A stretch of 64,000 nucleotides of DNA from Alphaproteobacteria bacterium. GTDB taxonomy: Bacteria > Pseudomonadota > Alphaproteobacteria > UBA828. Position 1 is the stretch's first letter. Each line of letters opens with the position of its first letter. Shown in pieces: positions 47,008 to 64,000 of the stretch. The notes under the pieces are model-generated. The model was not told where the DNA came from. It did not search any database and saw only the letters and a program-made list of their open reading frames with translations. The DNA lies in NCBI GenBank assembly GCA_963422645.2, contig CAXXVO010000014.1, forward strand, positions 64,001-128,000, read 5' to 3'. The position numbers were made by a program, and so were the translations under genes.

Positions 47008-47161
47008 GGGGCATTCTCCTGGTTGGCTGGCGATGCCATGCAACCGCCAGCATTGAGGACCGTTCGACTCGCGAGTAGCATATACTCAATTCCGATCATT
47101 CGCATTGGCCGGTGGCCGACAGGTGCGCCCGCCAACACACTCCACACGGACTCGGCTCACG

Positions 47162-48952
47162 ATGCCTGACAACTCTCCCGCCGCAGACGCGACGGAACAC
47201 GACGCGGCCGACCATCTCGCCGCCATCACGGAACAAAGCCAGCGGATCGCAGCGCGCTTTTTCAGCGGGCAGGGCGCGACCGGCACCGGGGCGGCTTCCG
47301 ACCCCCTCAACCTGAGCGCCGCCTTGGGGGCGATGGCGCGGAGCCTGGCCAACGATCCGTCGCCGCTGATCGACGCTCAGATGAGGTGGTGGGACGGCTA
47401 TCTCAGGCTGTGGCAGCAAGGCGCGGAGCGCTTGCGAGGCGAAGAGCCTGAGCCGGTGGCCGCGCCCGAGCCCGACGACCGGCGTTTTCGCGATCCGGCC
47501 TGGACCGAGAGCTGGGTCTTCGATCATCTCAAGCAGTCATATCTGCTGACGGCTGCCTGCGTGCAGTCGACGGTGGGGAACCTGCGCGGCCTCGACGAGA
47601 GGGACGCCGCGAAGCTCGCCTTCTACACGCGCCAATTCGTCGATGCGCTGGCGCCGACCAATTTCCTCGCCACCAACCCCGCCGCACTGAAGGAGACCGC
47701 CGAGACCAAGGGCGAGAACTTGCTAAAGGGCCTGCGCAACGTGCTCGACGATCTGGAGCGTAATGACGGTCGCTTTGCGCCCCGAATGTCGGACGAGGAT
47801 CATTTCAGCCTGGGTGAGACCATCGCCACGACGCCCGGAAAGGTCGTCTTCCAGAACGAGCTCATGCAGCTGATCCAGTACGCCCCGAGCACCGAGACGG
47901 TGTTTCGCCGGCCGCTCCTCATCGTGCCGCCCTGGATCAACAAGTACTACGTGCTCGATCTGAGGCCGAAGAACTCGTTCGTCAGGTGGGCCGTATCGCA
48001 GGGCTATACGGTCTTCGTGATCTCGTGGGTCAACCCGGACGAGCGCCTCGCGAAGAAGACCTTCGAGGACTACATGGTGGAAGGCCCGTTGGCTGCGCTC
48101 GATGCGATCGAGCAGGCGACAGGCGAGCGCGATGTCACGGCGATCGGCTACTGTTTGGGCGGCACGCTGACGGCGGCGACGCAGGCGTACCTCGCGGCCA
48201 AGGACGACAAGCGGATCAGGAGCGCGACCTTCTTCGCCTCCCTCGTCGACTTCACCGAGCCCGGCGAACTCGGCGTCTTCATCGACGACGCCCAGCTCGA
48301 GTCGCTCGAGGCCATGATGGCGGAGCAGGGCTATCTCGAAGGCCGCCACATGGCGACGACCTTCAACATGCTGCGGGCCAACGACCTGATCTGGTCATTC
48401 GTGGTTAACAACTACCTGCTCGGCCGCGAGCCGCTGCCCTTCGACCTGCTCTTCTGGAATTCGGATTCGACCCGGATGCCGGCGGCGATGCACGGCTTCT
48501 ACCTGCGCAAGATGTATCAGGAGAACCTGCTCGCCCAGCCGGAGGGCCTGAGCCTCGCTGGCGTTCCCATCGACCTCCGTCGCGTCGACATCCCCACCTA
48601 TATCGTGGCGACGCGGGAAGACCACATCGCACCGTGGCAGTCCTGCTTCGCCGCGTGCGGGCTCTACCGGGGGCAGCGCCGCTTCGTCCTCGGCGCTTCC
48701 GGTCATATTGCCGGCATCATCAACCCGCCGGCGGCCGGCAAGTACGGCTACTGGACCGGACCGGTCGTGGAGTCGCAGGACGCCAACGCCTGGCTTGCCG
48801 CCGCCGAGCAACACGATGGCTCCTGGTGGAACGACTGGCACGCCTGGCAGCGCCGCCGCTCAGGCGGCAGGAAGGTACCGGCGCGGGTTCCGGGCGACGG
48901 CGGGCTTACTCCGATCGAGGACGCGCCGGGCGCCTACGTCCTGGCGGGGTAG
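47162..48952 (+). CDS. phaC: Class I poly(3-hydroxyalkanoate) synthase
   Basis: DRRF.DPAW, PTNF.ATNP, PPWINKYYVLDL, GYCLGG lipase box, EDHIAPW, SGHIAGIINPP, APGAYV. Confidence 0.97.
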   Translation: MPDNSPAADATEHDAADHLAAITEQSQRIAARFFSGQGATGTGAASDPLNLSAALGAMARSLANDPSPLIDAQMRWWDGYLRLWQQGAERLRGEEPEPVAAPEPDDRRFRDPAWTESWVFDHLKQSYLLTAACVQSTVGNLRGLDERDAAKLAFYTRQFVDALAPTNFLATNPAALKETAETKGENLLKGLRNVLDDLERNDGRFAPRMSDEDHFSLGETIATTPGKVVFQNELMQLIQYAPSTETVFRRPLLIVPPWINKYYVLDLRPKNSFVRWAVSQGYTVFVISWVNPDERLAKKTFEDYMVEGPLAALDAIEQATGERDVTAIGYCLGGTLTAATQAYLAAKDDKRIRSATFFASLVDFTEPGELGVFIDDAQLESLEAMMAEQGYLEGRHMATTFNMLRANDLIWSFVVNNYLLGREPLPFDLLFWNSDSTRMPAAMHGFYLRKMYQENLLAQPEGLSLAGVPIDLRRVDIPTYIVATREDHIAPWQSCFAACGLYRGQRRFVLGASGHIAGIINPPAAGKYGYWTGPVVESQDANAWLAAAEQHDGSWWNDWHAWQRRRSGGRKVPARVPGDGGLTPIEDAPGAYVLAG

Positions 48953-51891: not shown

Positions 51892-51939
51892 TCACTTATC
51901 CAGCATCGTTGTTTGATGACGTCGAGTGGCGGGGGTGTG

Positions 51940-52680
51940 ATGTCGATCTTGATTTCAGGCGGAACCAAGGGCATCGGGCGGGCCATCGGTCTCGCCTTCG
52001 CCGAGCCCGGCGTCGACGTGTTTCTCAACTATCACGGCGATGACGATGCGGCGGACGAGGCCCGGACACTGGTCGACTCGAAGGGTGCGCGCTGTCATCT
52101 GATCAAGCAGGATGTCTCGACGCCGGGGGGCTGCCGGGCTGTGCTCGCCCAAGTGGCGGAGCGCGTCGACCGGCTCGACCAGCTCGTGCACTGCGCGGTC
52201 CGCGCCATTCCGAAGCCCGCGCTGGACTGCGACCCGGACGATTTCACCGCCGCGGTCAATCTCAACGGCACGGCGCTGCTCTATCTCGTGCAGGCGGCCG
52301 ATCCGCTGCTCCAGCGCGGCAGCACGGTGTTCTTTCTCACCAGCCGGGGCGGGCGCACCGTGGTCCCCAACTACGCCGCCATCGGCATCGCCAAGGCGCT
52401 GGCGGAATCTTTGGTGCGCTATCTCGCGAGCGAGCTTGCGCCGCGCGGCGTGCGAATCAACAGCGTCGCTCCCGGCGTGGTAGATACGGATGCGGTGCGG
52501 GCGTTGTTCGGCGACCAGGCGAGCGAGATCGTGAAGCACGCCGCCGAGACGAACCCGAGCGGACGCGGCGTGCGGGACGAGGACTACACCAGCGTGATCC
52601 GCTTCCTCGCGAGTCCGGAGGCCGCGTTCGTCCAGGGGCAAACGATTTTCGTCAACGGCGGCCACTACCTGGCGGCGTAG
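51940..52680 (+). CDS. SDR oxidoreductase, FabL/FabI-like enoyl reductase type
   Basis: SGGTKGIG, YAAIGIAK (Yx6K), LVRYLASEL.PRGVRINSVAPG, GQTIFVNGG. Confidence 0.9.
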   Translation: MSILISGGTKGIGRAIGLAFAEPGVDVFLNYHGDDDAADEARTLVDSKGARCHLIKQDVSTPGGCRAVLAQVAERVDRLDQLVHCAVRAIPKPALDCDPDDFTAAVNLNGTALLYLVQAADPLLQRGSTVFFLTSRGGRTVVPNYAAIGIAKALAESLVRYLASELAPRGVRINSVAPGVVDTDAVRALFGDQASEIVKHAAETNPSGRGVRDEDYTSVIRFLASPEAAFVQGQTIFVNGGHYLAA

Positions 52681-52689
52681 GCGGCGCCC

Positions 52690-53859
52690 TCAACCCAGCC
52701 GCTCGATCAGCGTCGCGTTGGCCATGCCGCCGCTCTCGCACATGGTCTGAAGGCCGAGGCGGCCGCCGCTCTCCTCCAGGCTCCCGATCAGGCTGGCCGT
52801 GAGCCGGCCACCCGATGCGCCGACGGGATGGCCGAAGGCGATGGCCCCGCCGTTGACGTTGACGCGGTCGAGGTCGGCACCCAGCGTCTCCGCCCAGGCC
52901 AGCACCACCGAGGCGAAGGCTTCGTTGACCTCGAAGCGGTCGATCTCGCCCAAGGTCCGGCCGCTTCGCGCCAGCAGCTTTTCCGTTGCCGGGATGATCC
53001 CCGTCAGCATGAGCAGGGGGTCGTCGCCCGAGACCGCGAAATGCGTGATCGCCGCACGCGGCGTCAGGCCCAGCCGCTGCACCGACTCCTCCGACGCGAT
53101 CAGCAGTGCCGAGGCGCCGTCGGAGACCTGGCTCGAATTCCCCGCCGTCACCACCCAGCCGATCTCGGGGAAGCGCTCGGCCTTGCCGGCATCCACGAAC
53201 GCGGGCTCCAGCGCGGCGAGCTTTTCCGCACTCGTATCGGGGCGGATGCCTTCGTCCGTCGAGGCCCCGTCGATGGGCAGGATGTCGCGCGCGAAGACGC
53301 CGCGCTCCTCGGCCGCCGCCGCGCGCCGGTGCGAGCGCAGCGCGTAGGCATCGAGGTCGGCGCGCGAGAGCCCCCAGCGGGCCGAGATCAGCTCGGCGGA
53401 AATGCCCTGGTGCACCAGACCGTCGGCGTAGCGCCGGCGCAGCATCGGCCCGAGATGGTCCTTGCCGCGCCGGTTGCTGCCCATCGGCACGCGGCTCATC
53501 ATCTCGACCCCGCAAGCGATGACGAGGTCGTAGGCCCCCGCCATCACGCCCTGCGCCCCAAAATCCATCGCCTGCTGCGCCGAGCCGCACTTGCGGTCGA
53601 TGGTGACGGCGGGAACGGTCTCGGGAAAGCCCGCCGCGAGCCAAGCCTGGCGGCCGATGTTGGCGGCCTGCTCGCCCGCCTGGATGACGCAGCCCGCGAT
53701 CACGTCGTCGACCGCGCCGGGATCGACGCCGGTGCGCGCGACCAGACCCTCGAGCGTCATCGCAAGCAGGTCGACCGGATGAACCGCGCTCAGCGCACCA
53801 TCCGCCCGCCCCTTGGCGAAGGGAGTGCGGACCACATCGATGATGAGGGCGCGGCGCAT
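52690..53859 (-). CDS. Thiolase (acetyl-CoA C-acyltransferase)
   Basis: RTPF, DRKCGSAQQA (Cys), NEAF, GHPVGASG, TMCESGG (Cys). Confidence 0.95.
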   Translation of the reverse strand: MRRALIIDVVRTPFAKGRADGALSAVHPVDLLAMTLEGLVARTGVDPGAVDDVIAGCVIQAGEQAANIGRQAWLAAGFPETVPAVTIDRKCGSAQQAMDFGAQGVMAGAYDLVIACGVEMMSRVPMGSNRRGKDHLGPMLRRRYADGLVHQGISAELISARWGLSRADLDAYALRSHRRAAAAEERGVFARDILPIDGASTDEGIRPDTSAEKLAALEPAFVDAGKAERFPEIGWVVTAGNSSQVSDGASALLIASEESVQRLGLTPRAAITHFAVSGDDPLLMLTGIIPATEKLLARSGRTLGEIDRFEVNEAFASVVLAWAETLGADLDRVNVNGGAIAFGHPVGASGGRLTASLIGSLEESGGRLGLQTMCESGGMANATLIERLG

Positions 53860-53860
53860 C

Positions 53861-55321
53861 CTAGCCGGCACGACGGAGCGAAACCGAGAGATTGGCGCTT
53901 TCCACCTCCACGTACTTCGAGGTGGAAAGCGCCATCAACTTGCGCACGTGTTCGAGCTCCGGCGTGGAGAGAATCGGGAAGTCGCGCTTCACCGGGCCCG
54001 CGGCCCGCATCCTCTCCAGGTCCGCCGCCGGGACCAGGGCGCGCAGGATCAGCTCGTCGTCATCGTCGGTGCCGTGGCGCTTGCGAAGCTCGGCCAAGGT
54101 GGGCTGCTCCGGCGGCTCGGCCAGCACCTCCTTGGCACGGGGCGCGGCCATGATCCGGTCCAACACGTCCGGATCGATGGGCGCTACCGGCTCGCCGTAG
54201 TGCCCGCCGGCATACTGGATCACCTCGTCCGGAATCACGGCGTAGCGCTCGCCGGTGACAATGTTGAGCACAGCTAGGGTGCCGACGAGCTGGGAGAAGG
54301 GCGTCGCCATGCCGGGGTAGCCCAGCTCGCGGCGCACGCGGCCGGTCTCCTCCAGCACGTCGTCCAGCCGGTCCGCCATCTCGTGCTGGACGAGCTGCGC
54401 CTTCAGCGTCCCCATCATGCCGCCCGGCACCTGGTGGTGCACGGAGAAGAGGTCGTATTCCTGCGGCACGCCCACGGGGAAGCCCGCCGCCGTGGCGACG
54501 CCCTCGAAGTGCTCCGCGATCTGCGGCAGGAGCGATCGATCGATATTGTGGGTATGGCCGAGATGCTCGACGTTCCGTGTCATCACCTCGACCGAGGGGA
54601 CGGAAGGGCCGTTCGCCATCGGCCCGCAGGCCGTGTGCAGGATACGGATGCCGAGCTCGATCGCCTCGACGTAGGCGCGGCCGGAGGCGCCCAGGAGGTT
54701 ATTCGAGTGGAACTCGATGGGCTTGCCGCGCGCGTTCGCCATGATGGCCGGCACCAGCGTGCGCATGCGGTCCGGCTCCAGCACGCCGCCCGTGTCGTAG
54801 AGCAGGAGCGTGTCGATATCCGGCGAGGCCGAGAGCCTGTCCGCTTTGTCGGCGTAGTAGTCGTCGGTGTGCACCGGGCTCAGCGTGAACATGATGGCGC
54901 CTGCCACCTCCGCGCCGAACTCCTTGGCCACCCTGGCGAGGCGGTGTGTCTTGTCGATGTTGAAGAGCACGTCGTAGATCCAAAAACTGCGGCAGCCGTG
55001 CACGCAGAGCTGCCGCATCCAGACGTCCATCAGCGCATCGGGCGTGACGCCGAAGGTGACGCTCGCATTGCTGCGCATGCCGCCCCGGATCGTGCTCTTG
55101 GGCATGGCGTCGACCAGGAGGTCGAGCCCCTCCCACGGATTCTCGCGGCATTGGCGGATCAGGACCTCGAAGAGGCTCGAGCCGGTGAGGTCCACCACCC
55201 GATAGCCGACCCGGTCGATCACCGGTGCAATGGGGAGCGCCATGCCGGCCTGCATGCGCATGCCCCACAGGCTCTGCTGTCCGTCCCGCATGGTCTCGTC
55301 GAGGAATTCGATGTGCGCCAT
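53861..55321 (-). CDS. Stand-alone carboxyltransferase subunit (PycB/OadA/transcarboxylase-5S-like TIM barrel, no biotin domain)
   Basis: DETMRDGQQSLW, ENPWE, TLSPVHTDDYY, HQVPGGM, ELGYP.MATPFSQLVG; metal HxH reads FHSNN and the usual KD-Lys position reads LYDTGG. Confidence 0.88.
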   Translation of the reverse strand: MAHIEFLDETMRDGQQSLWGMRMQAGMALPIAPVIDRVGYRVVDLTGSSLFEVLIRQCRENPWEGLDLLVDAMPKSTIRGGMRSNASVTFGVTPDALMDVWMRQLCVHGCRSFWIYDVLFNIDKTHRLARVAKEFGAEVAGAIMFTLSPVHTDDYYADKADRLSASPDIDTLLLYDTGGVLEPDRMRTLVPAIMANARGKPIEFHSNNLLGASGRAYVEAIELGIRILHTACGPMANGPSVPSVEVMTRNVEHLGHTHNIDRSLLPQIAEHFEGVATAAGFPVGVPQEYDLFSVHHQVPGGMMGTLKAQLVQHEMADRLDDVLEETGRVRRELGYPGMATPFSQLVGTLAVLNIVTGERYAVIPDEVIQYAGGHYGEPVAPIDPDVLDRIMAAPRAKEVLAEPPEQPTLAELRKRHGTDDDDELILRALVPAADLERMRAAGPVKRDFPILSTPELEHVRKLMALSTSKYVEVESANLSVSLRRAG

Positions 55322-55332
55322 CGTCGCTCCGC

Positions 55333-56691
55333 TCAGTGCATCAGCGAGGGCATGAAGACGTCCTCCAGCCAGCGCGTGTTGAGCCTGTTAGCCGTGAAGT
55401 CAGGGTGCCGCACCAAGTGCGCCTGGAACGCGAGGTTGGTGTCGATCCCGCCGATCTGAAATCGGTCCAGCGCGCCGCCCATGCGCTCCACCGCTTCGGC
55501 GCGGTCGCCAGCGCGCACGATCAGCTTCGCGATCATGCTGTCGTAGAAGGGAGACACGAAGGCACCCGGGCGGCAGTGGCTGTCTATGCGAATGCCCTGT
55601 CCCTCCGGTGCGCACCAGGCGTCGATCAGACCGGGCGAGGGCGCGAAGTCCCGCTCCGGCGCCTCGGCGTTGATCCGGCATTCGATGGCGTGGCCGGCAA
55701 GCGCGATGTCTTCCTGCGCGACGCTGAGCCCGCCGCCGCCCGCGATGCGCAACTGCTCCTCGATCAGGTCGATGCCGGCGACCTCCTCGGTCACGGGATG
55801 CTCGACCTGGATGCGGACATTGGCTTCGATGAAATAGGCCTCGCCGCGGTCAACGTCGTAGAGGAACTCGACCGTGCCGGCGCTCCGATAGTCGAGGTGC
55901 CGGGCGAGGCGGCAGGCGGCGTCGTGAATCTGCGTGCGCGCTTCGGCCGGCAGCGCCGCCGCCGGCGCTTCCTCCACCATCTTCTGGAAGCGCCGCTGCA
56001 CAGAGCAATCCCGCTCGCCGAAATGGACGACCGCGCCGTCGCCGTCGCCCATGATCTGCACCTCAACATGGCGCGCGTCCTCGACGAAGCGCTCAACGAA
56101 GAGCGTACCGTCGCCAAAGGCGGCCTTGGCCTCCGTCGATGCACGCTCGAAGCCATCGTCGATGTCCGCATCCCTTCGTGCGACGAACATGCCGCGCCCG
56201 CCGCCACCTGCGCTGGCCTTCATCAGCACCGGGTAGCCGACGGAGGCGGCGAAGGAGCGGGCCTCGGCTGCCGAATGGATACGGTCGGAGCCGGGGACGA
56301 TGGGCACGCCCGCTTCGATCGCGATGGTGCGGGCGGTGAGCTTGTCGCCGAGCCGCTCGATGGTCTCGGCCCGCGGCCCGACGAACGCGATTCCCTCCCG
56401 CTCGCACAGGCCGGCGAGAGCCGGGGACTCGGAGAGGAAGCCGTAGCCCGGATGCAGTCCGTCGCAGGCGGTGGCCTCGGCCGCATGCACAAGCAGGTTG
56501 GCGTTGAGGTAGCTCTCGCGCGCCGGCGCCGGCCCCAGCACCACCGCGCGGTCCGCGAGCTCCGCCGCCAAGCCCTCGCGGTCCGCGTCGGAGACCCCGA
56601 CAACGCACTCGAGCCCGAGCGCGCGGCAGGCGCTGACGATGCGCACGGCGATCTCCCCCCGGTTGGCGACGAAGACGCGCGAGAGGGCCAT
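55333..56691 (-). CDS. Biotin carboxylase subunit
   Basis: ANRGEIAVRI, HPGYGFLSE, KASAGGGGRGM, ERDCSVQRRFQK, RIQVEHPVTE, ECRINAE, YDSMIAK. Confidence 0.96.
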   Translation of the reverse strand: MALSRVFVANRGEIAVRIVSACRALGLECVVGVSDADREGLAAELADRAVVLGPAPARESYLNANLLVHAAEATACDGLHPGYGFLSESPALAGLCEREGIAFVGPRAETIERLGDKLTARTIAIEAGVPIVPGSDRIHSAAEARSFAASVGYPVLMKASAGGGGRGMFVARRDADIDDGFERASTEAKAAFGDGTLFVERFVEDARHVEVQIMGDGDGAVVHFGERDCSVQRRFQKMVEEAPAAALPAEARTQIHDAACRLARHLDYRSAGTVEFLYDVDRGEAYFIEANVRIQVEHPVTEEVAGIDLIEEQLRIAGGGGLSVAQEDIALAGHAIECRINAEAPERDFAPSPGLIDAWCAPEGQGIRIDSHCRPGAFVSPFYDSMIAKLIVRAGDRAEAVERMGGALDRFQIGGIDTNLAFQAHLVRHPDFTANRLNTRWLEDVFMPSLMH

Positions 56692-57161
56692 CACGCCGTC
56701 TCGGCCGCTTCGGCCTCCGGCTCGACCAGAAAGAGCGGTACGCCAAACTCCACCATCTCGCCGTCCTCGACGCAGGCCTTGGCGATCCGGCCGCTGATCC
56801 CGGCCCGCACCGGCGTGAACAGCTTCATGACCTCGATCAGACAAACCTCGGTTGCCTCGCTGACCTGCTGGCCGACCTCCACGTAGGGCGCGATCCCCGG
56901 CTTGGGCGCGCGGTAGAAGGTGCCGAGATTGGGCGCCGTGATCGGCACAAGCCCATCGGCCGGCGCCGCTTCGGCCGGATCGGGAGGGGCCTGCTCCTCC
57001 GAGGCTACGCCAGCCTCCGTCGCCGCCGATCCGAGTGCCGCCGCATCCGCATCCTTCGAGAGCACCAGCTTCAGGCCGTCGGTCTCGAGCCGGAGCTCGT
57101 GCCAGTCCGAGCGGTCGAAGATGCGGATCAGCGCCTCGACCTCCTTGCGGTCGACGGTCAT
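56691..57161 (-). CDS. Biotin carboxyl carrier protein
   Basis: APNLGTFYRAP, IEVMKL biotinylation site, VEFGVPLF. Confidence 0.94.
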   Translation of the reverse strand: MTVDRKEVEALIRIFDRSDWHELRLETDGLKLVLSKDADAAALGSAATEAGVASEEQAPPDPAEAAPADGLVPITAPNLGTFYRAPKPGIAPYVEVGQQVSEATEVCLIEVMKLFTPVRAGISGRIAKACVEDGEMVEFGVPLFLVEPEAEAAETA

Positions 57162-58918
57162 GCAGCGGTCTCCGCGCGCGCGGCGGCACAGGCCGCAAGC
57201 AGTGCCGGCAGGGCGTGGCGCACGACGATGAAATCGAGACCGGCGGCGACGGCGGCCGCGACACCCGCATCGCTGGCGAGCGCGCCGCCCTTTGCGCCGG
57301 GAGTCCCCTCGAGCAGCGCGGGCAAGCGCTCCGGGTCCGCACCGCCCGGCAAGCGGTCGAGATCGACCGCGCCCTCCGGCGCCGCGTCGCCCGCGCGATA
57401 GACCGCCATCGGCGCGGCCGCGCGGGCCCATGACGTGATCTGGCGGAGGTAGGGATCGTCCGTCTCCGAAGGAACGCTCACCGGCAATGCGCCATCGAAC
57501 ACCTTCCCCGCCTTGCCGTCCACCGTCACCTCCCTGCCCGCAAGCGCTGCGTCCACGCCTTCGCCGCAGCCGACGACGCAGGGAACGCCGAGGGAGCGGC
57601 TTACCACGGCGGCGTGGGAGGTCGCACCCCCGGTCGCCGTCACGACAGCGCGGGCGGTGACCATGCCGTGCACGTCGTCCGGGCTGGTGGTCGGGCGCAC
57701 CAGCACAACGTCCTCGCCGGACGTGCCGCGCGCCTCGGCCGCATCGGCGTCCAGCACGACTTTGCCGATGCCGACACCGGGGCTCGCTCCCTCTCCCTCG
57801 GCGAGCAGGGAGGCGTTCTCCCCGGCGCCGTCGTCAAGGCGGGGCATGAGCAGCATGCGGACCTGGGCCGCGCTGACGCGGGCGAGTGCCTCGTCCGTGG
57901 AGATCCTTCCCTCATTCACCAGGTCGACCGCGACGCGCATGGCCGCGGCGGGAGCCCGTGCGGCGGTGCGGGTCTGCAACAGGTAGAGCGCGCCCTCTTG
58001 TACCGAGAACTCGATGTCCTGCACATCCCGGTTCAGCGCTTCGAGCCGGCGCGCGGCGTCGATCAGTGCGGCGTGCGCCTCCGGCAGGGAAGACGCCAGC
58101 GCATCCAGTCCCTGCGGCGTCCGCTGGCCGGAGACCACGTCCTCCCCCTGGGCGCGGGCGAGATACTCGCCGTAAGGCGCAGGCGCCCCGGTGAGCGGGT
58201 TGCGGCTGAAGAGCACACCCGTTCCGCTGTTCTCGCTGAGGTTGCCGAACACCATGGCTTGAACCGTGACGGCGGTCCCTGCGTCGTCCGGAAGCCCGTG
58301 ATGCCGGCGATATCGCTTCGCGCGCCGTCCGTTCCAGGAGTCGAAGACGGCGCGGACCGCGCCGAGAAGCTGATCGGCCGGCGCGTCCGGCACGCTACCC
58401 GCCGCCCCCGTCTCCGCAACGGTTGCGCGCCATGTCGCTGGGGTCCCTTGGGAAGGCAGCCCGTCGATCGCCGCCTTGAGCACGATGCGCGCGTACATCT
58501 CGTGGAAGCGCCGATGCGTGTCGCGGGCGAAGACAGCGTCGCCGCTCTCGGCTGCGAGCGCTGCCTCGATTTCCTCGTCGATCCCGAGATTGAGCACCGT
58601 ATCCAGCATACCCGGCATGCTGACGTCGGCGCCGGAGCGAACGGCCAGCAGCAAGGGGCGTTCGTGCGCGCCGAAGCGGCGCCCGGTCTCCGCCTCCAGC
58701 ATGGCGATGCCGGCGTGAAGCTCGTCGACGAGGCCGTCCGGCAGCGCGCCTTCGGCGAGATAGGCGCGGCAGGCCTCGGTCGTCGCCACGAAGGCGGGCG
58801 GCACCGGCAGGACTGCGTGGCGCATGACGGCGATGCCCCACGCCTTGCCGCCGATCAGCGCGCGGTCGGGCTGCGCCGCGCCGTCGAGGAAGAGCACCCA
58901 GCGGCCGACAGCACCCAT
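57158..58918 (-). CDS. PPDK-like protein: ATP-grasp plus phospho-His domain, lacking the C-terminal pyruvate-binding barrel
   Basis: IGGKA, VPPAFV, VRSGA.VSMPGMLDTVLNLG, VQAMVFGN, SGTGV, QGEDVVSG, DIEF, LLQTR, GGATSHAAVVSR; only 586 aa. Confidence 0.9.
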   Translation of the reverse strand: MGAVGRWVLFLDGAAQPDRALIGGKAWGIAVMRHAVLPVPPAFVATTEACRAYLAEGALPDGLVDELHAGIAMLEAETGRRFGAHERPLLLAVRSGADVSMPGMLDTVLNLGIDEEIEAALAAESGDAVFARDTHRRFHEMYARIVLKAAIDGLPSQGTPATWRATVAETGAAGSVPDAPADQLLGAVRAVFDSWNGRRAKRYRRHHGLPDDAGTAVTVQAMVFGNLSENSGTGVLFSRNPLTGAPAPYGEYLARAQGEDVVSGQRTPQGLDALASSLPEAHAALIDAARRLEALNRDVQDIEFSVQEGALYLLQTRTAARAPAAAMRVAVDLVNEGRISTDEALARVSAAQVRMLLMPRLDDGAGENASLLAEGEGASPGVGIGKVVLDADAAEARGTSGEDVVLVRPTTSPDDVHGMVTARAVVTATGGATSHAAVVSRSLGVPCVVGCGEGVDAALAGREVTVDGKAGKVFDGALPVSVPSETDDPYLRQITSWARAAAPMAVYRAGDAAPEGAVDLDRLPGGADPERLPALLEGTPGAKGGALASDAGVAAAVAAGLDFIVVRHALPALLAACAAARAETAA

Positions 58919-58920
58919 GC

Positions 58921-59523
58921 CTATTCCTGCCGCGTGCGGCCGAGGATTCGCAGCAGGTCTTCGTGAAGCTCGAACCACACCGTGTGATAGGACTCGATCC
59001 GTGCGCCGCTGACCCACTCGATAGCGCCGTCCTCGGCCTTCTCCAGCGCCGCTTCCAGCTTGCACGCGTAAATCGCGAGGCGCGGCAGGCCGGCGCTCAG
59101 TTGCTGGAGGATCGCCTCCGCCCGCTCGTGCAGGGCGCCCAGACGATCGATCAGCCTATCGTCATAGTCCTTGTTGGTGTGATCGTTCAGCACGCTCTCG
59201 CCGTCGATCTCGATGGTCTGCCACGCGGTCATCAGCGCCTTGAGGTCTCGATTGATCGCCTCGAAGCGCTCGCAGGCGGAGGCGAACGCCGGGTCGGCCC
59301 GTTGCGCGGCAAAGAGCCTGGAATAGGCGCCGTCGAGGGCCACGCGCGCGACAGGCGTCAGGGAATACGCCTCGCCGGCGCGCAGGGCGCGGCCCTTGGC
59401 CACCGCCTCGTCGAGCGCCGCCTGCACCTCGGTCTCGTCGAGTCCGACTGCTTTGGCGATCGCCGCGGCGTCCGCATGCTTCTTGATCGCGAGGCCGTGG
59501 AGGACGAGATAGGTGTCGGTCAT
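58921..59523 (-). CDS. Conserved helical protein with N-terminal winged-HTH (partner of truncated PPDK; Rv1126c-like by recall)
   Basis: N-terminal HTH-like segment; WQ...NDHTNKDYD...SYHTVWFELHEDL motif; 2 bp from the PPDK-like start. Confidence 0.75.
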   Translation of the reverse strand: MTDTYLVLHGLAIKKHADAAAIAKAVGLDETEVQAALDEAVAKGRALRAGEAYSLTPVARVALDGAYSRLFAAQRADPAFASACERFEAINRDLKALMTAWQTIEIDGESVLNDHTNKDYDDRLIDRLGALHERAEAILQQLSAGLPRLAIYACKLEAALEKAEDGAIEWVSGARIESYHTVWFELHEDLLRILGRTRQE

Positions 59524-59526
59524 GGC

Positions 59527-61020
59527 TCAGGCACTCTCCCGCTCGGCCGTCGTGTCGGCCGAGGCGAGGACGCGGTCTCGGACCGCGCGGCGCAGGAGCT
59601 TGCCTGCCCCGCTCTTGGGCAGCGTGTCCCAGATCTCGACGCTCTTCGGGCACTTGTAGCCGGCGAGCCTCTCGCGACAGAACTGCCGCACTGCCTCCGG
59701 GTCGAGACCCGGCCGCCCGGCAACGACGGCATGGACGCGATCGCCCCACTTCTCGTCGGGCAGTCCCACCACGGCGGCCTCGACGACGCCCTCGTGGGCC
59801 AGCAGCACATCCTCGATCTCGCGCGGGTAGACGTTGTAGCCGCCGCTGATGAGCATGTCGTTCTTGCGGTCGAGAATGTAGAAGAAGCCGTCCTCGTCGA
59901 TGCGGCCGATGTCGCCGGTATGGAGCCAGCCGTTGCGGAAGGCCCTGGCGGTCTCCTCCGGGCGCTTCCAGTAACGGGCCATGAGCTGGGTCCCGCGGCA
60001 GACGATTTCGCCCCGCTCGCCGGTCGGCACCGGCTTGTCGTCCTCGTCGAAGACCGCCACGTCCGCGGTGGTGTAGGGCCGCCCGCACGAGCCCACGCGG
60101 TCGTGATCCTCCGGCCCGAGATAGGTAATCACCATGGGGGACTCCGCCTGGCCGTAGGTCTGGGCGAAGACCGGGCCGAAACGGGCCATGGCGCGCTCCA
60201 GCAGGCTCGGCGCGATGGGCGATGCGCCGTAGCAGATGCGTTTGAAGCGGAGGTCCGCCGTCTCCAGCGCGGGCTCCTCCATGATCATCGCCAGCATGGT
60301 CGGCACCAGAAAGGTGTGGGTCGCGCGCGCCTGCGCAGCCATGGCGATGAAGCCGACGGCGTCGAAGTGCGGCATGATCCACTGGTGCACGCCCCGTACC
60401 AGCGCGGGCAGGAAGAAGGCGCCACTCGCGTGCGCGATGGGGGCGGCGTGGAGGAAGCGGTCGCCCGACGCGAGGTCGGGCACCAGGTCCATGAGAAAGG
60501 CCGAGAGCTCCGCAGTCTCGCCCAGCGTGGTGAGCGTGACCGCCTTGGGCGCGCCGGTGGTCCCGCCCGTGAAGCCCAGGCGATAGGGCGCCTCAAGCTC
60601 GCGGTCCACGCAGCAGACGCCGGGTGGTCCCTCGTCGATGAGCCGGCGGAGCGCGTCGGCGCCGTAGACCATGGCCGCGCCGAAGCCCTTGGCGCCCTCG
60701 ACATCGTCGTGGATGAGGCCGCGGGCGCCGCTGTCGCCCAGCTTGTAGCGATGGTCCGCCGCCGTCTCGCGCACGTTGAGCGAGACCCGCACGAGGCCGG
60801 ACTTGGCGATCGCGTAGTAGGCGATCAGGCAATCGATCCCGTTGGGCAGCAGCACGCCGACGCGGTCGCCCAGCTCGAAGCCTTCCGCGAGCAGCGCGTT
60901 GCCGAGCCGGTCCGTCGCCGCGTCGAAGGCGCGGAAGCTCAGCGTGCGCGTCCCTTCGGTCAGCGCCGGTGCCTCGCCGTACATGAGCGCCGCGCGCCGG
61001 ATGTACTCGCCGATCTGCAT
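59527..61020 (-). CDS. Acyl/aryl-CoA ligase (ANL superfamily)
   Basis: FTGGTTGAPK, YGQAE, WLHTGD, DRKNDMLISGGYNVYPREIE, LPKSGAGK. Confidence 0.95.
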   Translation of the reverse strand: MQIGEYIRRAALMYGEAPALTEGTRTLSFRAFDAATDRLGNALLAEGFELGDRVGVLLPNGIDCLIAYYAIAKSGLVRVSLNVRETAADHRYKLGDSGARGLIHDDVEGAKGFGAAMVYGADALRRLIDEGPPGVCCVDRELEAPYRLGFTGGTTGAPKAVTLTTLGETAELSAFLMDLVPDLASGDRFLHAAPIAHASGAFFLPALVRGVHQWIMPHFDAVGFIAMAAQARATHTFLVPTMLAMIMEEPALETADLRFKRICYGASPIAPSLLERAMARFGPVFAQTYGQAESPMVITYLGPEDHDRVGSCGRPYTTADVAVFDEDDKPVPTGERGEIVCRGTQLMARYWKRPEETARAFRNGWLHTGDIGRIDEDGFFYILDRKNDMLISGGYNVYPREIEDVLLAHEGVVEAAVVGLPDEKWGDRVHAVVAGRPGLDPEAVRQFCRERLAGYKCPKSVEIWDTLPKSGAGKLLRRAVRDRVLASADTTAERESA

Positions 61021-61060: not shown

Positions 61061-62614
61061 CTAGTCGCGGGGGAGCGCCGCCAGCTCCGCAGCGCCGAGC
61101 GATGCCCCGCGACCCTGGATCTTGCGCGCCCGCTCCTGCTCCAAATGGTACATCTCGTCCGCGCGCGCCGTGTCGTGGTTGTACTTGAGCCAGGTCTCGT
61201 CCAGGAAACGATAGCGGTCGGACTGCGGCGCGAAGGCGCGGACCCGCGCGTTGTACTCCTCCAGCGTCAGCACGCCCTGGCTCGTGCGGTAGCGGTCGGC
61301 CTTGGCCGGGAGCGTGGTGGCGCCGGGATAGACCGGGCCGCAAGTGGGCACGTACTCCTCGCCGTCCAGGATCGCGTAAGGGATCGGCGTATACATGCGG
61401 GTCGGGCCGTTGCCGTGCTGCATCATGCTGTAGGACGAAAGGCGATGGCTCGCCAGCGTCAGCAGTCCCACCAACTCGCCCAGGCAGTCGCGGCTGAACT
61501 CGTCGTTGAGCAGGGGGCGGAAGCGCTCCGCCCGCTCGTCGATCAGCATCCAGTCCTCTCGGGCGTAGACGCCGGCGACGTGGGCGAGGTCCTTGCAGAT
61601 GCCGAAGTAGGTGAGCGCGCCGGCGTCGAGCATCTGGTCGCGGCTCCAACCGGCGATGCGCCTCCAGAGCCGCGCCGTCGCTTCCTTGAAGAGCCCGTCC
61701 AGCGTGCGGAATATCTCGGTCAGGGTCTCGCGACTCTCCATCCCCACCGGAACGTGCCCCTCGGTGAGCGGGTCGGAGGTGTAGAGGCCGACGCCGATGA
61801 TACTCTCCGCCCTGAACTCAGGCTCGGATTCGAAGCTTCCCCAGTCGTCGACCAGGTAGAAGTGGCAGTCCTTCACCAGCATCGGGACGGTGAGGTTGTT
61901 GTAGGGAATGTCGGCCGCCACGTCGTCGAGCCAGGGGAAGTCGCCTTCGCCGAGGTCCATGAAGTCGCGGACGATCATCTCCACGCCGTCGGCGACTTTG
62001 TAGGGCCCGGTGTTGAGCAGACTGATGCGGCTCTCGCAGCTCACCAGGAAGCCGTATTGCGCCGCAGAAGCCATGAACTGGGTCGCCGCGCTGTGCAGCG
62101 CATCGCCGGCCTCGCAGCCGTAGGCGTCGGACTCGAAGACCTGAAGCCGCCGCTCCGGCAGGATCTGGCAGCGGTGGCCGAACTCCTTATTGGTGATGTG
62201 GCCGTCGTTACGGTGCCAGGAGAGTTGCAGGCGTTTCCAGAAGTCCATCAGGTAGACGAGGTCTTCCACGGCGTCCTGCGGGCGCAGAAGGCCCATATTG
62301 ATGAGCCACTCGCGGCCGAGCAGGTAGAAGCCCGGCATTCCCCAGCCCATGGCGCTCTTGCCCGGCGGGCGTCCCTCCCGAGCGCGATCGCCGATCTCTT
62401 CCGCCGTCATCACGCTCTCCACCTTTCGCAAGAGCGAGGGGTAGCGGTAGAAGGCGTTGAGGTAGGAGAGCAGCATGTAGGGCGGCACCGGAAAGAGCTT
62501 GGATTCCTGCACGGTGCGCGTGACGCAGAGCCAGTAGGTCTCGTCGGTGAAGGTTTGCAGGAGGTTGTTGGTCTCCAGCAGCTGAGCGTAGGAGAGGCGA
62601 GGCGCGCCGACCAT
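61061..62614 (-). CDS. Hypothetical protein, 517 aa (no family recognised)
   Basis: Long ORF with natural composition and GC3 bias from ATG 62614 (TGATG overlap with upstream stop); lies within the operon. Confidence 0.85.
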   Translation of the reverse strand: MVGAPRLSYAQLLETNNLLQTFTDETYWLCVTRTVQESKLFPVPPYMLLSYLNAFYRYPSLLRKVESVMTAEEIGDRAREGRPPGKSAMGWGMPGFYLLGREWLINMGLLRPQDAVEDLVYLMDFWKRLQLSWHRNDGHITNKEFGHRCQILPERRLQVFESDAYGCEAGDALHSAATQFMASAAQYGFLVSCESRISLLNTGPYKVADGVEMIVRDFMDLGEGDFPWLDDVAADIPYNNLTVPMLVKDCHFYLVDDWGSFESEPEFRAESIIGVGLYTSDPLTEGHVPVGMESRETLTEIFRTLDGLFKEATARLWRRIAGWSRDQMLDAGALTYFGICKDLAHVAGVYAREDWMLIDERAERFRPLLNDEFSRDCLGELVGLLTLASHRLSSYSMMQHGNGPTRMYTPIPYAILDGEEYVPTCGPVYPGATTLPAKADRYRTSQGVLTLEEYNARVRAFAPQSDRYRFLDETWLKYNHDTARADEMYHLEQERARKIQGRGASLGAAELAALPRD

Positions 62615-63366
62615 CACGAAGCCTCCTGGGCCAGCTTCCAGATGTTGGCGGTCACTTCCTCGCCCTTCTGATAGGCCTCCGCCGTTTTCGCCGCCGCGGC
62701 GGTCTCCATCTCCAGGCGCTGACCTTCCTTGATCCCGGTGATCTTGGCGTTCATGAGGCAGGGAATACCGTATTCCCGCGCGAGAATCCCGAGGTGGGAA
62801 CGCACGGTGCCGCCCATGCAGATGATGCCGGTGAATTGCTCCAGGATCGGCGCGGTGAGGGTGCCGCCGGAATCGTCGATGATGGCGATGGTCTCGGGCG
62901 GCACGCCGTCGCCGAGATAGCGCATGACCTGGCTGCTGGAGCGGACGTAGCGCGCGGTGCCTACGGTATTCTCGGCGACGCGCATCACGTTGTCGCCGAC
63001 GCCGCAAAGCGCCCTGCCCTCTGCATCGGCCTCGCCGGAGGGCGCGTCCGGGTGCTCCATGGTCCAGTCGGGGTCGTCACCCAGGATGCCTTCGGCGGGC
63101 TTATAGGCCTCGGGCCGTTCGTTCACCGAAATCACCGCCGAGAAGTCGTAGCGGTGGCCGGCGTCGAGCAGCTTCCTTTCGATCTCCTCGAAATCGGCCG
63201 CGGTGATCAGATCGTAGGACTTGTCGAAGACGAAACTGTTCCAGTCGACCCCGCTCTCGCCCAGGCGGCGCCTCACCAGGTCCTTGATCGCGCTGTGGAA
63301 GGCCTCGACGGTGGGCGAGTGTGCCTGATCGCCGTACTTGTCCGTGTCCACGTAAAGCTTGGCCAC
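62614..63366 (-). CDS. Protein with C-terminal PEP-utilising phospho-His (swivel) domain
   Basis: GIICMGGTVRSHLGILAREYGIPC matches the phospho-His swivel motif; acidic N-terminal domain; RBS GGGGGAG before GTG. Confidence 0.87.
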   Translation of the reverse strand: MAKLYVDTDKYGDQAHSPTVEAFHSAIKDLVRRRLGESGVDWNSFVFDKSYDLITAADFEEIERKLLDAGHRYDFSAVISVNERPEAYKPAEGILGDDPDWTMEHPDAPSGEADAEGRALCGVGDNVMRVAENTVGTARYVRSSSQVMRYLGDGVPPETIAIIDDSGGTLTAPILEQFTGIICMGGTVRSHLGILAREYGIPCLMNAKITGIKEGQRLEMETAAAAKTAEAYQKGEEVTANIWKLAQEAS

Positions 63367-63513: not shown

Positions 63514-64000
63514 ATGCCAGCGGAGAGCGATCTCTCCCACCACCGCATCCTGGTCACCAATGACGACGGCATCCATGCCAGGGGGCTGAAAATTCTCGAG
63601 GCGATCGCGCGGAGCCTGTCCGACGATGTCTGGGTCGTCGCGCCTGATCACGAGCGGAGCGGCGCCGGCCATTCCATCTCGATGCACACGCCGATCCGCC
63701 TGCGCCAGATGGGGGAGAAGCGCTACGCGGTGGACGGTACGCCCACCGACTGTGCGCTCATGGCGATCCACGAGCTGATGACCGAAAGCCCGCCCACGGT
63801 CCTCCTCTCCGGCATCAATCGCGGCGCCAATCTCGCGGATGACATGACCTATTCGGGCACCATCGCCGCCGCGATGGAGGGGACCCTGCTCGGCATCCGC
63901 TCGATCGCGCTCAGCCAGGTGTTCACCATGGGCGGTGAGGCGCTCTGGGCCACGGCGGAGGCCTTCGCGCCGGACGTGATCCAAACCCTCATGCGCCTGC
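63514..64000 (+). CDS. surE: 5'/3'-nucleotidase SurE (3'-truncated by window edge)
   Basis: RILVTNDDGIHARGL, VVAPDHERSGAGHSIS, DGTPTDC, SGINRGANL, YSGTIAAAMEG. Confidence 0.96.
   Translation, partial: MPAESDLSHHRILVTNDDGIHARGLKILEAIARSLSDDVWVVAPDHERSGAGHSISMHTPIRLRQMGEKRYAVDGTPTDCALMAIHELMTESPPTVLLSGINRGANLADDMTYSGTIAAAMEGTLLGIRSIALSQVFTMGGEALWATAEAFAPDVIQTLMRL

Follow-up and report, generated by a model that had tools for sequence, protein, structure and literature searches.

Gene B is the second gene of a nine-gene operon (A to I) in a 64,000 nt stretch of an alphaproteobacterial genome (lineage UBA828; contig CAXXVO010000014.1, positions 64,001 to 128,000), referred to here as the window. 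It occupies positions 61061-62614 on the minus strand and encodes a 517 aa protein for which sequence searches, a structural model, and fold searches gave no described family. Our leading reading, held with slightly better than even confidence, is that B is the subunit that binds the acceptor and transfers the phosphoryl group in a multi-protein dikinase working by histidine relay, and that this would be a third kind of small-molecule dikinase. The operon most likely carboxylates, then cleaves, a ketone. In kind this is familiar, a swivel-histidine dikinase that by analogy feeds a biotin carboxylase. The apparent novelty, as far as sequence comparison goes, lies in an acceptor protein not detectably related to known acceptor domains, an extra swivel protein, and a third subunit. 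On the same grounds neither of the types known so far, HpeHI/AcvAB and MarK, is related to the putative A-B-D-E kinase.

Carboxylation of ketones that have been primed by phosphorylation is a recently discovered route for lignin-derived aromatics, with two kinase types known. In Rhodococcus rhodochrous GD02 the Hpe pathway, and in Sphingobium SYK-6 the Acv pathway, opens with a two-component dikinase, HpeHI or AcvAB (PMC9618137; bioRxiv 10.1101/2022.04.28.489975), which phosphorylates the phenolic OH of acetovanillone or 4-hydroxyacetophenone (PMC9618137). The biotin carboxylase HpeCBA is reported to accept only the phosphorylated ketone, and the later steps fall to a phosphatase, a CoA ligase, and a cleavage enzyme (PMC9618137). 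AcvD has been called PycB-like (bioRxiv 10.1101/2022.04.28.489975). HpeH has been modeled as an acceptor domain like that of rifampin phosphotransferase (RPH) plus a swivel domain, with HpeI as the ATP-grasp protein, and HpeH alone transfers the phosphoryl group from 4-phosphoacetophenone to acetovanillone (PMC12167813). Novosphingobium uses an unrelated kinase, MarK (PMC12624787). In a 2026 paper these two kinase types are still the only ones listed, and kinase and carboxylase genes are clustered in only 52/836 genomes (PMC13101465). Our literature search, for which the family has no name and which did not extend to the supplements PMC9618137 Fig. S5 and PMC12624787 Datasets S2/S3, returned no description of an A-B-D module. 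If our reading is true, a third, unrelated kinase accounts for some acv/hpe-type carboxylase clusters that seem to have no kinase, and pathway engineering gains an added part. In the broader and less probable version given further below, it would also provide the missing acceptor partner for 'orphan' truncated pyruvate phosphate dikinases (PPDKs). Those of the VadK kind are currently described as having no acceptor domain at all (PMC13400623). In the window and in Rhodococcus, a truncated PPDK of this kind is encoded with a conserved candidate acceptor unit.

The B open reading frame consists of 517 codons plus a stop, with an ATG start and a TAG end, and it contains the three peptides that a preliminary description of this DNA had quoted (at residues 27, 186, and 337). 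The ATG (62614-62612) has its A in common with the TGA stop of gene A (TGATG), and an AGGAGG lies 8 nt upstream. The preliminary description saw in this overlap a coupling to a phospho-His gene. The overlap stands, but the coupled gene is a separate 250 aa swivel protein, A, and not the truncated PPDK. GC content at third codon positions is 0.90. Phe, Trp, and Tyr together make up 11.2% of the residues, a mild form of the aromatic richness noted earlier, and no 20-residue window holds more than 12 hydrophobic residues, in agreement with the soluble appearance that had been pointed out. Nor do our searches contradict the remark that no family could be recognized. There were no families at E≤0.01 either in Pfam-A (hmmscan) or in NCBIfam, with models for PPDK and phosphoenolpyruvate (PEP) synthase included and NF006149-NF006153 unmatched, and no matches among PDB sequences at E≤10. 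In the ESM Atlas the top feature score was 0.79, under the level of a usable lead.

The family is large and has no Pfam entry. A word-seeded search, in which 8000 candidates were scored and clusters were drawn at 90% identity, gave 998 protein clusters at E≤1e-3, and these clusters together with 78 genome loci place the reality of the gene far above chance. The best 120 of the 998 matches are 63-99% identical to B and carry no Pfam domain, and all the named ones among them are called 'hypothetical protein'. Of 1.84 billion cluster representatives, 513 matched the family profile at E≤1e-3, 104 of them at E≤1e-30. The family alignment (A1) contains alpha- and gammaproteobacterial members at 59-85% identity to the query. 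The conserved core comprises residues ~13-380, followed by a subfamily-specific extension (residues ~380-517). Its motifs are RTxxES..P..Y46, G100-R101, C-E-S-R196, G203-P-Y205, D257-W-G, and Y336. A distant branch of ~375 aa proteins, ~25% identical to B, aligns to residues ~13-380. Tyr46, Gly100, Arg196, Tyr205, and Pro265 are invariant in B and in this branch, and Arg33, Leu40, Pro42, Pro59, Arg101, Leu190, Gly203, Pro204, Tyr336, Gly348, and Asp354 are near-invariant in both.

B keeps constant company with a swivel gene. Gene A (62614-63366, minus strand) encodes a 250 aa protein that begins with an N-terminal domain of no known family. A divergent swivel domain of the PEP-utilizers kind follows, matched by PF00391 at residues 158-218 (E 5.1e-8, 32.9 bits, cut-off 23.1) and containing His191 in the motif GGTVRSH. 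His191 and its neighbors in GG..RSH191 are invariant in 26 sequences. A genome scan yielded 78 loci from Alpha- and Gammaproteobacteria, among them Roseiarcus, Chachezhania, Pseudooceanicola, Antarcticimicrobium, Rhodosalinus, and many metagenome-assembled genomes; the denominators that follow count loci with enough flanking DNA. Gene A lies directly upstream of B in every assessable locus (70/70), D accompanies B in 63/67, C is downstream of B in 54/67, and E is present in 50/60. The carboxylase genes F, G, and H occur with B in 48/58, 46/55, and 46/53 loci, respectively, and the thiolase gene I in 44/52. Most of the misses come from seven variant loci (L063-L066, L069, L071, and L073), where A-B-D is followed, if the flanks are readable, by an SDR-like (short-chain dehydrogenase-like) gene. 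Gene C is absent from all seven, and the six with enough flank have neither E nor a carboxylase. The one variant locus scanned against Pfam, L065, reads Y_phosphatase3-A-B-D-SDR-NUDIX. All seven genomes with a second A-B-D locus (7/7) also have the full operon with E on another contig, which suggests, from gene content, that one ATP-using E may serve several acceptor modules.

The same parts also occur as fusions, which the preliminary description had proposed looking for. Among 17 diverse relatives scanned, four join a swivel domain to B: P0180, P0216, and P0250 have PF00391 N-terminal to a B-like core, and P0182 is counted although its match falls just below the cut-off. A B-D fusion is seen in P0069, whose C-terminus is 62% identical to D (E 1e-72), and B and D form single frames in L059, L063, and L073. 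Relatives of ~720 aa were considered as A-B fusions and rejected (BLASTP E 0.33 to A); they are B-D fusions. P0250 (777 aa) is a triple fusion of swivel, B core, and D-like end. A 793 aa 'PEP-utilizing enzyme' on plasmid pROB02 of Rhodococcus opacus B4 has the swivel at 57-108, the B core at 204-583 (hhalign E 1.3e-55), and D at 603-789 (hhalign E 3.1e-18). Within the fusions the parts follow one another as the genes do, in the order A, B, D. Homologs of B are found almost always beside swivel domains, so a location mostly outside PEP-utilizer neighborhoods, which would have spoken against the earlier proposal, is not what the loci show.

Two side observations concern B-like genes on plasmids. 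Plasmid pRB98 of Rhodococcus oxybenzonivorans has three B-like genes besides its operon copy. Two of them lie in a tandem set (L079, 7902-12272) of a 125 aa swivel protein, a 398 aa B-like protein, a 542 aa swivel and B-like fusion, and a 381 aa protein with a weak DUF7065 match, with an extra acyl-CoA synthetase gene upstream; the third is at record position 409108-410253. On plasmid RPME01 of Methylibium petroleiphilum PM1 (L081, 9890-12106), a 415 aa B-like protein, a 153 aa hypothetical protein, and a 149 aa swivel protein are encoded together. A MarR gene adjoins them, and a cluster for a B12-dependent acyl-CoA mutase (with MeaB, the mutase subunits, and an AMP-binding protein) lies ~4 kb away.

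The distant branch behaves similarly toward swivel genes. It comprises 1351 clusters at E≤1e-10 (90% identity clusters, 8000 candidates scored), the named ones being mostly Acidimicrobiia. The whole-family alignment was too diverse for a metagenome scan, and a closer subset was used to collect 80 loci. A swivel gene lies directly upstream on the same strand in 62 of these, adjacent but divergent in five, and elsewhere in the locus in four; it is absent from three, and six are not assessable. Of six long loci scanned, four have a gene for a DUF7065/DUF7064 protein after the B-like gene. In L100, L122, L128, and L140 the conserved unit is made up of three genes, for a swivel protein, a B-like one, and one with DUF7065/DUF7064. 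The 5 kb around distant-branch genes showed no gene for an ATP-grasp protein, for a carboxylase, or for Y_phosphatase3.

The AlphaFold2 model of B, built from a 32-row alignment, has a mixed alpha/beta fold with a mean pLDDT of 86.5 and a pTM of 0.88, and two fold searches matched it to no solved fold. In the PDB, Foldseek found nothing at E≤0.001 (best E 0.11). The top rows (TolC and others; E at least 0.11, TM ~0.1) are noise, and Bet v 1/SRPBCC-like rows, with probabilities of at most 0.08, are too weak for use. VIA-align against 48,161 representative chains gave a best Z of 5.2 (79 residues, rmsd 3.4 Å), and its matches are generic helical ones over residues 163-323 only. A confident structural match to an unrelated known family, which would have told against the earlier description, did not turn up in either comparison.

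When A and B were modeled together, the predictions scored 0.87, 0.87, and 0.86, and the best of three controls scored 0.02. The mark used for such scores is reached by 116/157 solved complexes and 2/215 mismatched pairs, and is roughly valid here, our own alignments having been used. The runs have at least 86% of contacts in common, and partner pLDDT is at least 86. On the A side the predicted interface includes residues 185-186 and 189-191, the GG..RSH191 loop. On the B side it includes 35-44, 193-194, 196, 254, and 259-262, among them the superfamily-invariant Arg196. A large contact is also predicted between the N-terminal domain of A and residues 105-112, 320-328, and 361-380 of B. The model supports binding of A to B with the His loop among the residues that touch the most conserved patch of B, CESR/Arg196.

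The known dikinases have acceptor domains of two kinds, and B resembles neither detectably. In PEP synthase, PPDK, and enzyme I of the phosphotransferase system (PTS), a swivel histidine likewise moves between two distant active sites, but their own acceptor domain is a TIM barrel (PF02896). B has no sequence match to this PEP-utilizers_C profile in Pfam-A at E≤0.01, no Pfam match of any kind, and a mixed alpha/beta model. No PPDK, PEP synthase, or enzyme I chains were among the Foldseek or wide VIA rows for B, an absence that does not exclude a TIM barrel. In the HpeHI/AcvAB type the acceptor domain is of the rifampin (RIF)-binding type and lies N-terminal to the swivel, whereas B has no profile similarity to it. 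Two B profiles (A3 and A1) compared with a five-sequence alignment of PpsA-like proteins from genomes (A4) gave hhalign probabilities of 0.14% and 0.19%, respectively. The comparison was aimed at the N-terminal ~500 residues of these proteins, and A4 itself finds the RPH entries 5hv1/5fbs at E 2.3e-35. RPH entries are present in the PDB copy that was searched and none was among the rows returned for B, which again does not exclude the fold. The idea that B is a split or permuted PpsA/HpeH is rejected at the profile level, and the similarity to the substrate domain of rifampin phosphotransferase or PpsA that the preliminary description had proposed checking was found neither in profiles nor among the fold rows. 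With no Pfam, NCBIfam, profile, or fold match, B is no detectable relative of the TIM-barrel or RIF-binding acceptor domain.

The remaining genes of the operon give B its pathway context. All nine genes run in the same direction on the minus strand, and neighbors either overlap or are at most 11 nt apart. Gene C (59527-61020) encodes a 497 aa AMP-forming acyl-CoA synthetase (PF00501, E 6.9e-66; PF13193). Gene D (58921-59523) encodes a 200 aa protein of no sequence family, in whose model residues 1-70 form a MarR-like winged helix and a four-helix bundle follows. Gene E (57158-58918), which lies three genes downstream of B, encodes a 586 aa truncated PPDK (PF01326, E 1.8e-41; PF00391, E 8.9e-24). 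The carboxylase genes are F (56691-57161), for a 156 aa biotin carboxyl carrier protein (BCCP; PF00364, E 1.4e-14; TIGR00531), G (55333-56691), for a 452 aa biotin carboxylase (PF02786, PF02785, PF00289; NF006367, 595 bits), and H (53861-55321), for a 486 aa carboxyltransferase of the 5S/PycB type (PF02436, E 3e-27; NF006761, 308 bits). The best PDB matches of H are OadA (2nx9) and PycB (5ks8), and the domains of F, G, and H are those of a three-component biotin carboxylase with a PycB-like carboxyltransferase. Gene I (52690-53871) encodes a 393 aa thiolase (PF00108, PF02803; TIGR01930, 433 bits, above the cut-off). The swivel with the catalytic His (A) and the ATP-grasp protein (E), both encoded with B, make up the gene set of the dikinase class.

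By analogy, the operon repeats the logic of Hpe and Acv, namely kinase, carboxylase, CoA ligase, and cleavage, with a different set of kinase proteins. HpeHI and AcvAB are described as standing first in operons with BCCP, biotin carboxylase, PycB-type carboxyltransferase, phosphatase, CoA ligase, and cleavage enzyme (PMC9618137; PMC12167813). As far as published descriptions go, HpeHI, AcvAB, PpsAB, and CreHI are all split into an ATP-grasp protein and a protein with the swivel histidine and the acceptor site. The operon of B is unlike the HpeHI/AcvAB type in that the ATP-grasp protein E keeps its own swivel, a second swivel protein (A) is present, and there is a third protein, D. Pfam and NCBIfam scans of the operon found no PpsA-like, PpsB-only, or UPF0261 gene that would indicate a kinase of the HpeHI/AcvAB or MarK type. 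MarK (UPF0261/Tm-1-like, found with acvCDEF; PMC12624787) likewise holds the kinase position next to a homologous carboxylase, but this ADP-forming kinase is a single protein whose fold is unrelated and which uses no phospho-histidine relay. The carboxyltransferase H is 38-41% identical to those of MarK-BCCP-BC-CT-HAD clusters and ~30% identical to OadA. These clusters, on pBAR1 of Sphingomonas bisphenolicum and on a plasmid of Pseudomonas putida YC-AE1, contain its nearest plasmid relatives outside the operon family.

The genome also contains, on another contig (C7, 54496-60632), a PpsA/HpeH-like gene (NF006153, 601.6 bits, above the cut-off), its only PpsA-like gene. The first ~120 codons are cut off from the rest by an IS110-family transposase gene, and a PpsB-like ATP-grasp gene follows. 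The locus looks like a disrupted classical two-component dikinase of the phenol type, judging from its sequence, and has no carboxylase alongside.

Two Rhodococcus plasmids place the module in the kinase position. On pRB98 the whole operon is present (B 53% identical), followed by a Y_phosphatase3 gene and an SRPBCC gene. On pROB02 the fused A-B-D protein and an E homolog occur with a P450, a ferredoxin, an FAD-dependent oxidoreductase, an aldehyde dehydrogenase, a zinc-dependent alcohol dehydrogenase, and Y_phosphatase3. We take this gene set to be that of the Cre pathway, on our own assumption of the roles of Cre enzymes other than CreHI. The roles of CreJEF, CreG, CreC, and CreD in the Cre pathway were reportedly described by Du and co-workers in 2016. 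In that pathway CreHI phosphorylates 4-cresol ahead of side-chain oxidation (PMC9618137; bioRxiv 10.1101/2022.04.28.489975), and a Cre-type context is what it has in common with the pROB02 module. Since one cluster is Hpe-like (pRB98) and the other Cre-like (pROB02), the module holds the kinase position in two independent pathway types.

Protein E combines an ATP-grasp nucleotide domain with a swivel His domain of the canonical form (GGATSH) and has no PEP/pyruvate TIM barrel. Only positions 191-538 of the 865 in the full-length PPDK model TIGR01828 are matched, and E belongs to NF004531 (PRK05878), which it matches over model positions 8-532 of 534 with 708.9 bits (cut-off 456). Rv1127c (VadK) presumably belongs to the same family. 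Like E, VadK combines ATP-grasp and swivel His without a PEP/pyruvate domain. It autophosphorylates His422 and co-purifies with a small operonic partner (PMC13400623), Rv1126c. VadK is unlike E in that it is reported to be a regulator with no acceptor-domain partner in its genome (PMC13400623), whereas the gene for E shares an operon with A, B, D, and the genes of a catabolic carboxylase. No Mycobacterium protein was among the best 120 homologs of a Rhodococcus D.

From these elements a reaction sequence can be proposed. E would use ATP to phosphorylate a swivel histidine, and the phosphoryl group would reach His191 of A either directly at the ATP-grasp site of E or by His-to-His transfer. The swivel domain of A would then dock on B, where a putative pocket (Arg33, Arg101, Glu194, Arg196, Tyr46, Tyr205, and Tyr336, taken from conservation and the predicted interface) would hold the small-molecule acceptor, and B would catalyze phosphoryl transfer to an acceptor hydroxyl oxygen, phenolic or enolic. 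D would be part of this unit as well and might provide a metal site or serve as an adaptor to E. The biotin carboxylase F-G-H would then act on the phosphorylated ketone, and the beta-keto acid so formed would be dephosphorylated (by SurE here and Y_phosphatase3 elsewhere), activated to its CoA ester by C, and cleaved by thiolase I. The preliminary description had B supply the acceptor pocket that the truncated PPDK lacks. Synteny, fusions, the complex prediction, and the kinase position support this in part, in that B seems to work with a phospho-His domain, with acceptor binding as its presumed function. The predicted direct partner is the swivel protein A, not necessarily the PPDK fragment, and D, which had been overlooked, is part of the module as well. 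A broader version, which we put forward tentatively and rate short of even, is that B adds to the TIM barrel and the RIF-binding domain a third fold for acceptor domains in the swivel-histidine dikinase superfamily, and that A-B-D units are exchangeable, substrate-specific modules charged by a shared VadK-type truncated PPDK. This would be a phosphorelay for small-molecule catabolism resembling the PTS, in which one energizing protein likewise serves several acceptor modules.

Several observations weigh against the assignment of B as a phosphotransfer subunit. Because E has a canonical swivel of its own, the second swivel domain in A has no explanation, and we know of no precedent for transfer of a phosphoryl group from one swivel His to another. 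The window operon has neither a Y_phosphatase3 nor a HAD phosphatase, and only a divergent SurE is nearby. No aromatic-ring genes were seen in the window; with no ring genes, ABC transporters of the LivK and sugar types, and acetoacetate decarboxylase (ADC)-family genes nearby, a phenolic substrate is uncertain. The distant branch sits amid housekeeping genes (malate dehydrogenase, Fpg, aldehyde dehydrogenase, and H+-pyrophosphatase) with no ATP-grasp partner within 5 kb. The N-terminus of D resembles a DNA-binding winged helix. Finally, VadK, the one protein of E's kind to have been studied, is reported to be a histidine kinase with a regulatory role rather than a kinase of small molecules (PMC13400623).

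The last two points lead to a regulatory alternative, in which B senses a pathway substrate, E phosphorylates His191 of A, and either D binds DNA or the module modulates the carboxylase. For VadK, a regulatory action on methylcitrate-cycle enzymes is reported (PMC13400623). The D model (pLDDT 94.5) superposes over residues 1-70 on MarR-type winged helices (VIA Z 11.9, rmsd 1.2 Å over 70 residues to 6pco), some UniRef records call D homologs 'MarR family transcriptional regulator', and the 793 aa pROB02 fusion has a weak TrmB match (E 3.4e-4). The invariant residues of D, however, are mostly in the four-helix bundle (Asn113-Asp114-His115, His132-Glu133, His180...Glu185, and His187-Glu188-Asp189) and not in the recognition helix, and winged helices are also known in enzymes, e.g., O-methyltransferases and the Rio2 kinase. 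The genes are part of an enzyme operon so compact that stop and start codons overlap, related loci have separate GntR/FCD, HTH, or LuxR regulators, and the module stands in the kinase position of Hpe-like and Cre-like clusters with a dedicated phosphatase. We regard a regulatory role as unlikely.

The phosphatases bear on a second alternative, that B binds the phosphorylated carboxylation product and returns its phosphate to His191 of A, from which it would pass to fresh substrate or to E. B would then be the dephosphorylating step, a role that the preliminary description had also raised. The lack of a HAD or Y_phosphatase3 phosphatase in the window operon is in its favor, phosphoryl recovery would give the second swivel domain a purpose, and the transfer from 4-phosphoacetophenone to acetovanillone by HpeH makes such shuttling chemically plausible (PMC12167813). 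Y_phosphatase3 nevertheless accompanies the module in L020, L029, L065, pRB98, and pROB02, SurE is adjacent here, and, because E has no acceptor site, that of the priming kinase would be left unassigned. These dedicated phosphatases weaken the case for a dephosphorylating B, which we rate as quite improbable.

The SurE-family phosphatase/nucleotidase gene begins at 63530, is divergent from the operon (plus strand), and runs off the window at 64000 (PF01975, E 3.1e-58, on L094:52-1299). Neither the operon nor the 18 kb that follow the window showed a HAD-type phosphatase corresponding to HpeD/AcvF. A SurE gene also adjoins the operon in Roseiarcus (L020:5395-6585) and Pseudooceanicola (L029:5463-6227), both distantly related alphaproteobacterial loci. 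This repeated adjacency suggests SurE as a candidate phosphatase of the pathway.

The acceptor role of B could be kept with a different chemistry. The substrate may be a plain, non-phenolic methyl ketone, from which B would make an enol phosphate, acting as the TIM barrel of PEP synthase does on pyruvate, for the biotin enzyme to carboxylate. This would be an alternative to the hydantoinase-type acetone and acetophenone carboxylases. In acetone and acetophenone carboxylases the ketone is activated by phosphorylation. The hosts are marine and freshwater heterotrophs with no ring-cleavage genes seen, the best NCBIfam models for thiolase I are acetoacetyl-CoA thiolases, and SDR genes flank the operon, all in line with such a substrate. 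Against it, the nearest relatives of H outside the operon family are in aryl-ketone (acv/hpe-type) clusters, the Rhodococcus versions are on aromatic-catabolic megaplasmids, and the Cre-like context suggests that the phosphate serves to protect a hydroxyl group. Dedicated phosphatases would also be superfluous if the phosphate left during carboxylation. An enol-phosphate synthase is in our estimate an improbable reading.

The flanks of the operon contain further genes. The divergent SDR gene J (51913-52680, plus strand; PF13561, E 7.7e-56) keeps its position in related alphaproteobacterial loci according to the synteny table. The cluster is bounded on the SDR side by rplM and rpsI, past which, ~3 kb from the SDR end, is a gene for a PhaC-type polyhydroxyalkanoate synthase (47105-48952, plus strand; PF07167, E 1.8e-73). 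Past the window end are a LivK-type ABC transporter, two ADC-family genes, another SDR, and a GMC oxidoreductase. ADC-family (PF06314) genes near the operon form a tandem pair in this genome (L094:6429-8007, 3.4-5 kb beyond the window end), and a single one is near the Roseiarcus operon (L020:3809-4543). A beta-keto-acid decarboxylase beside a ketone carboxylase is an odd pairing.

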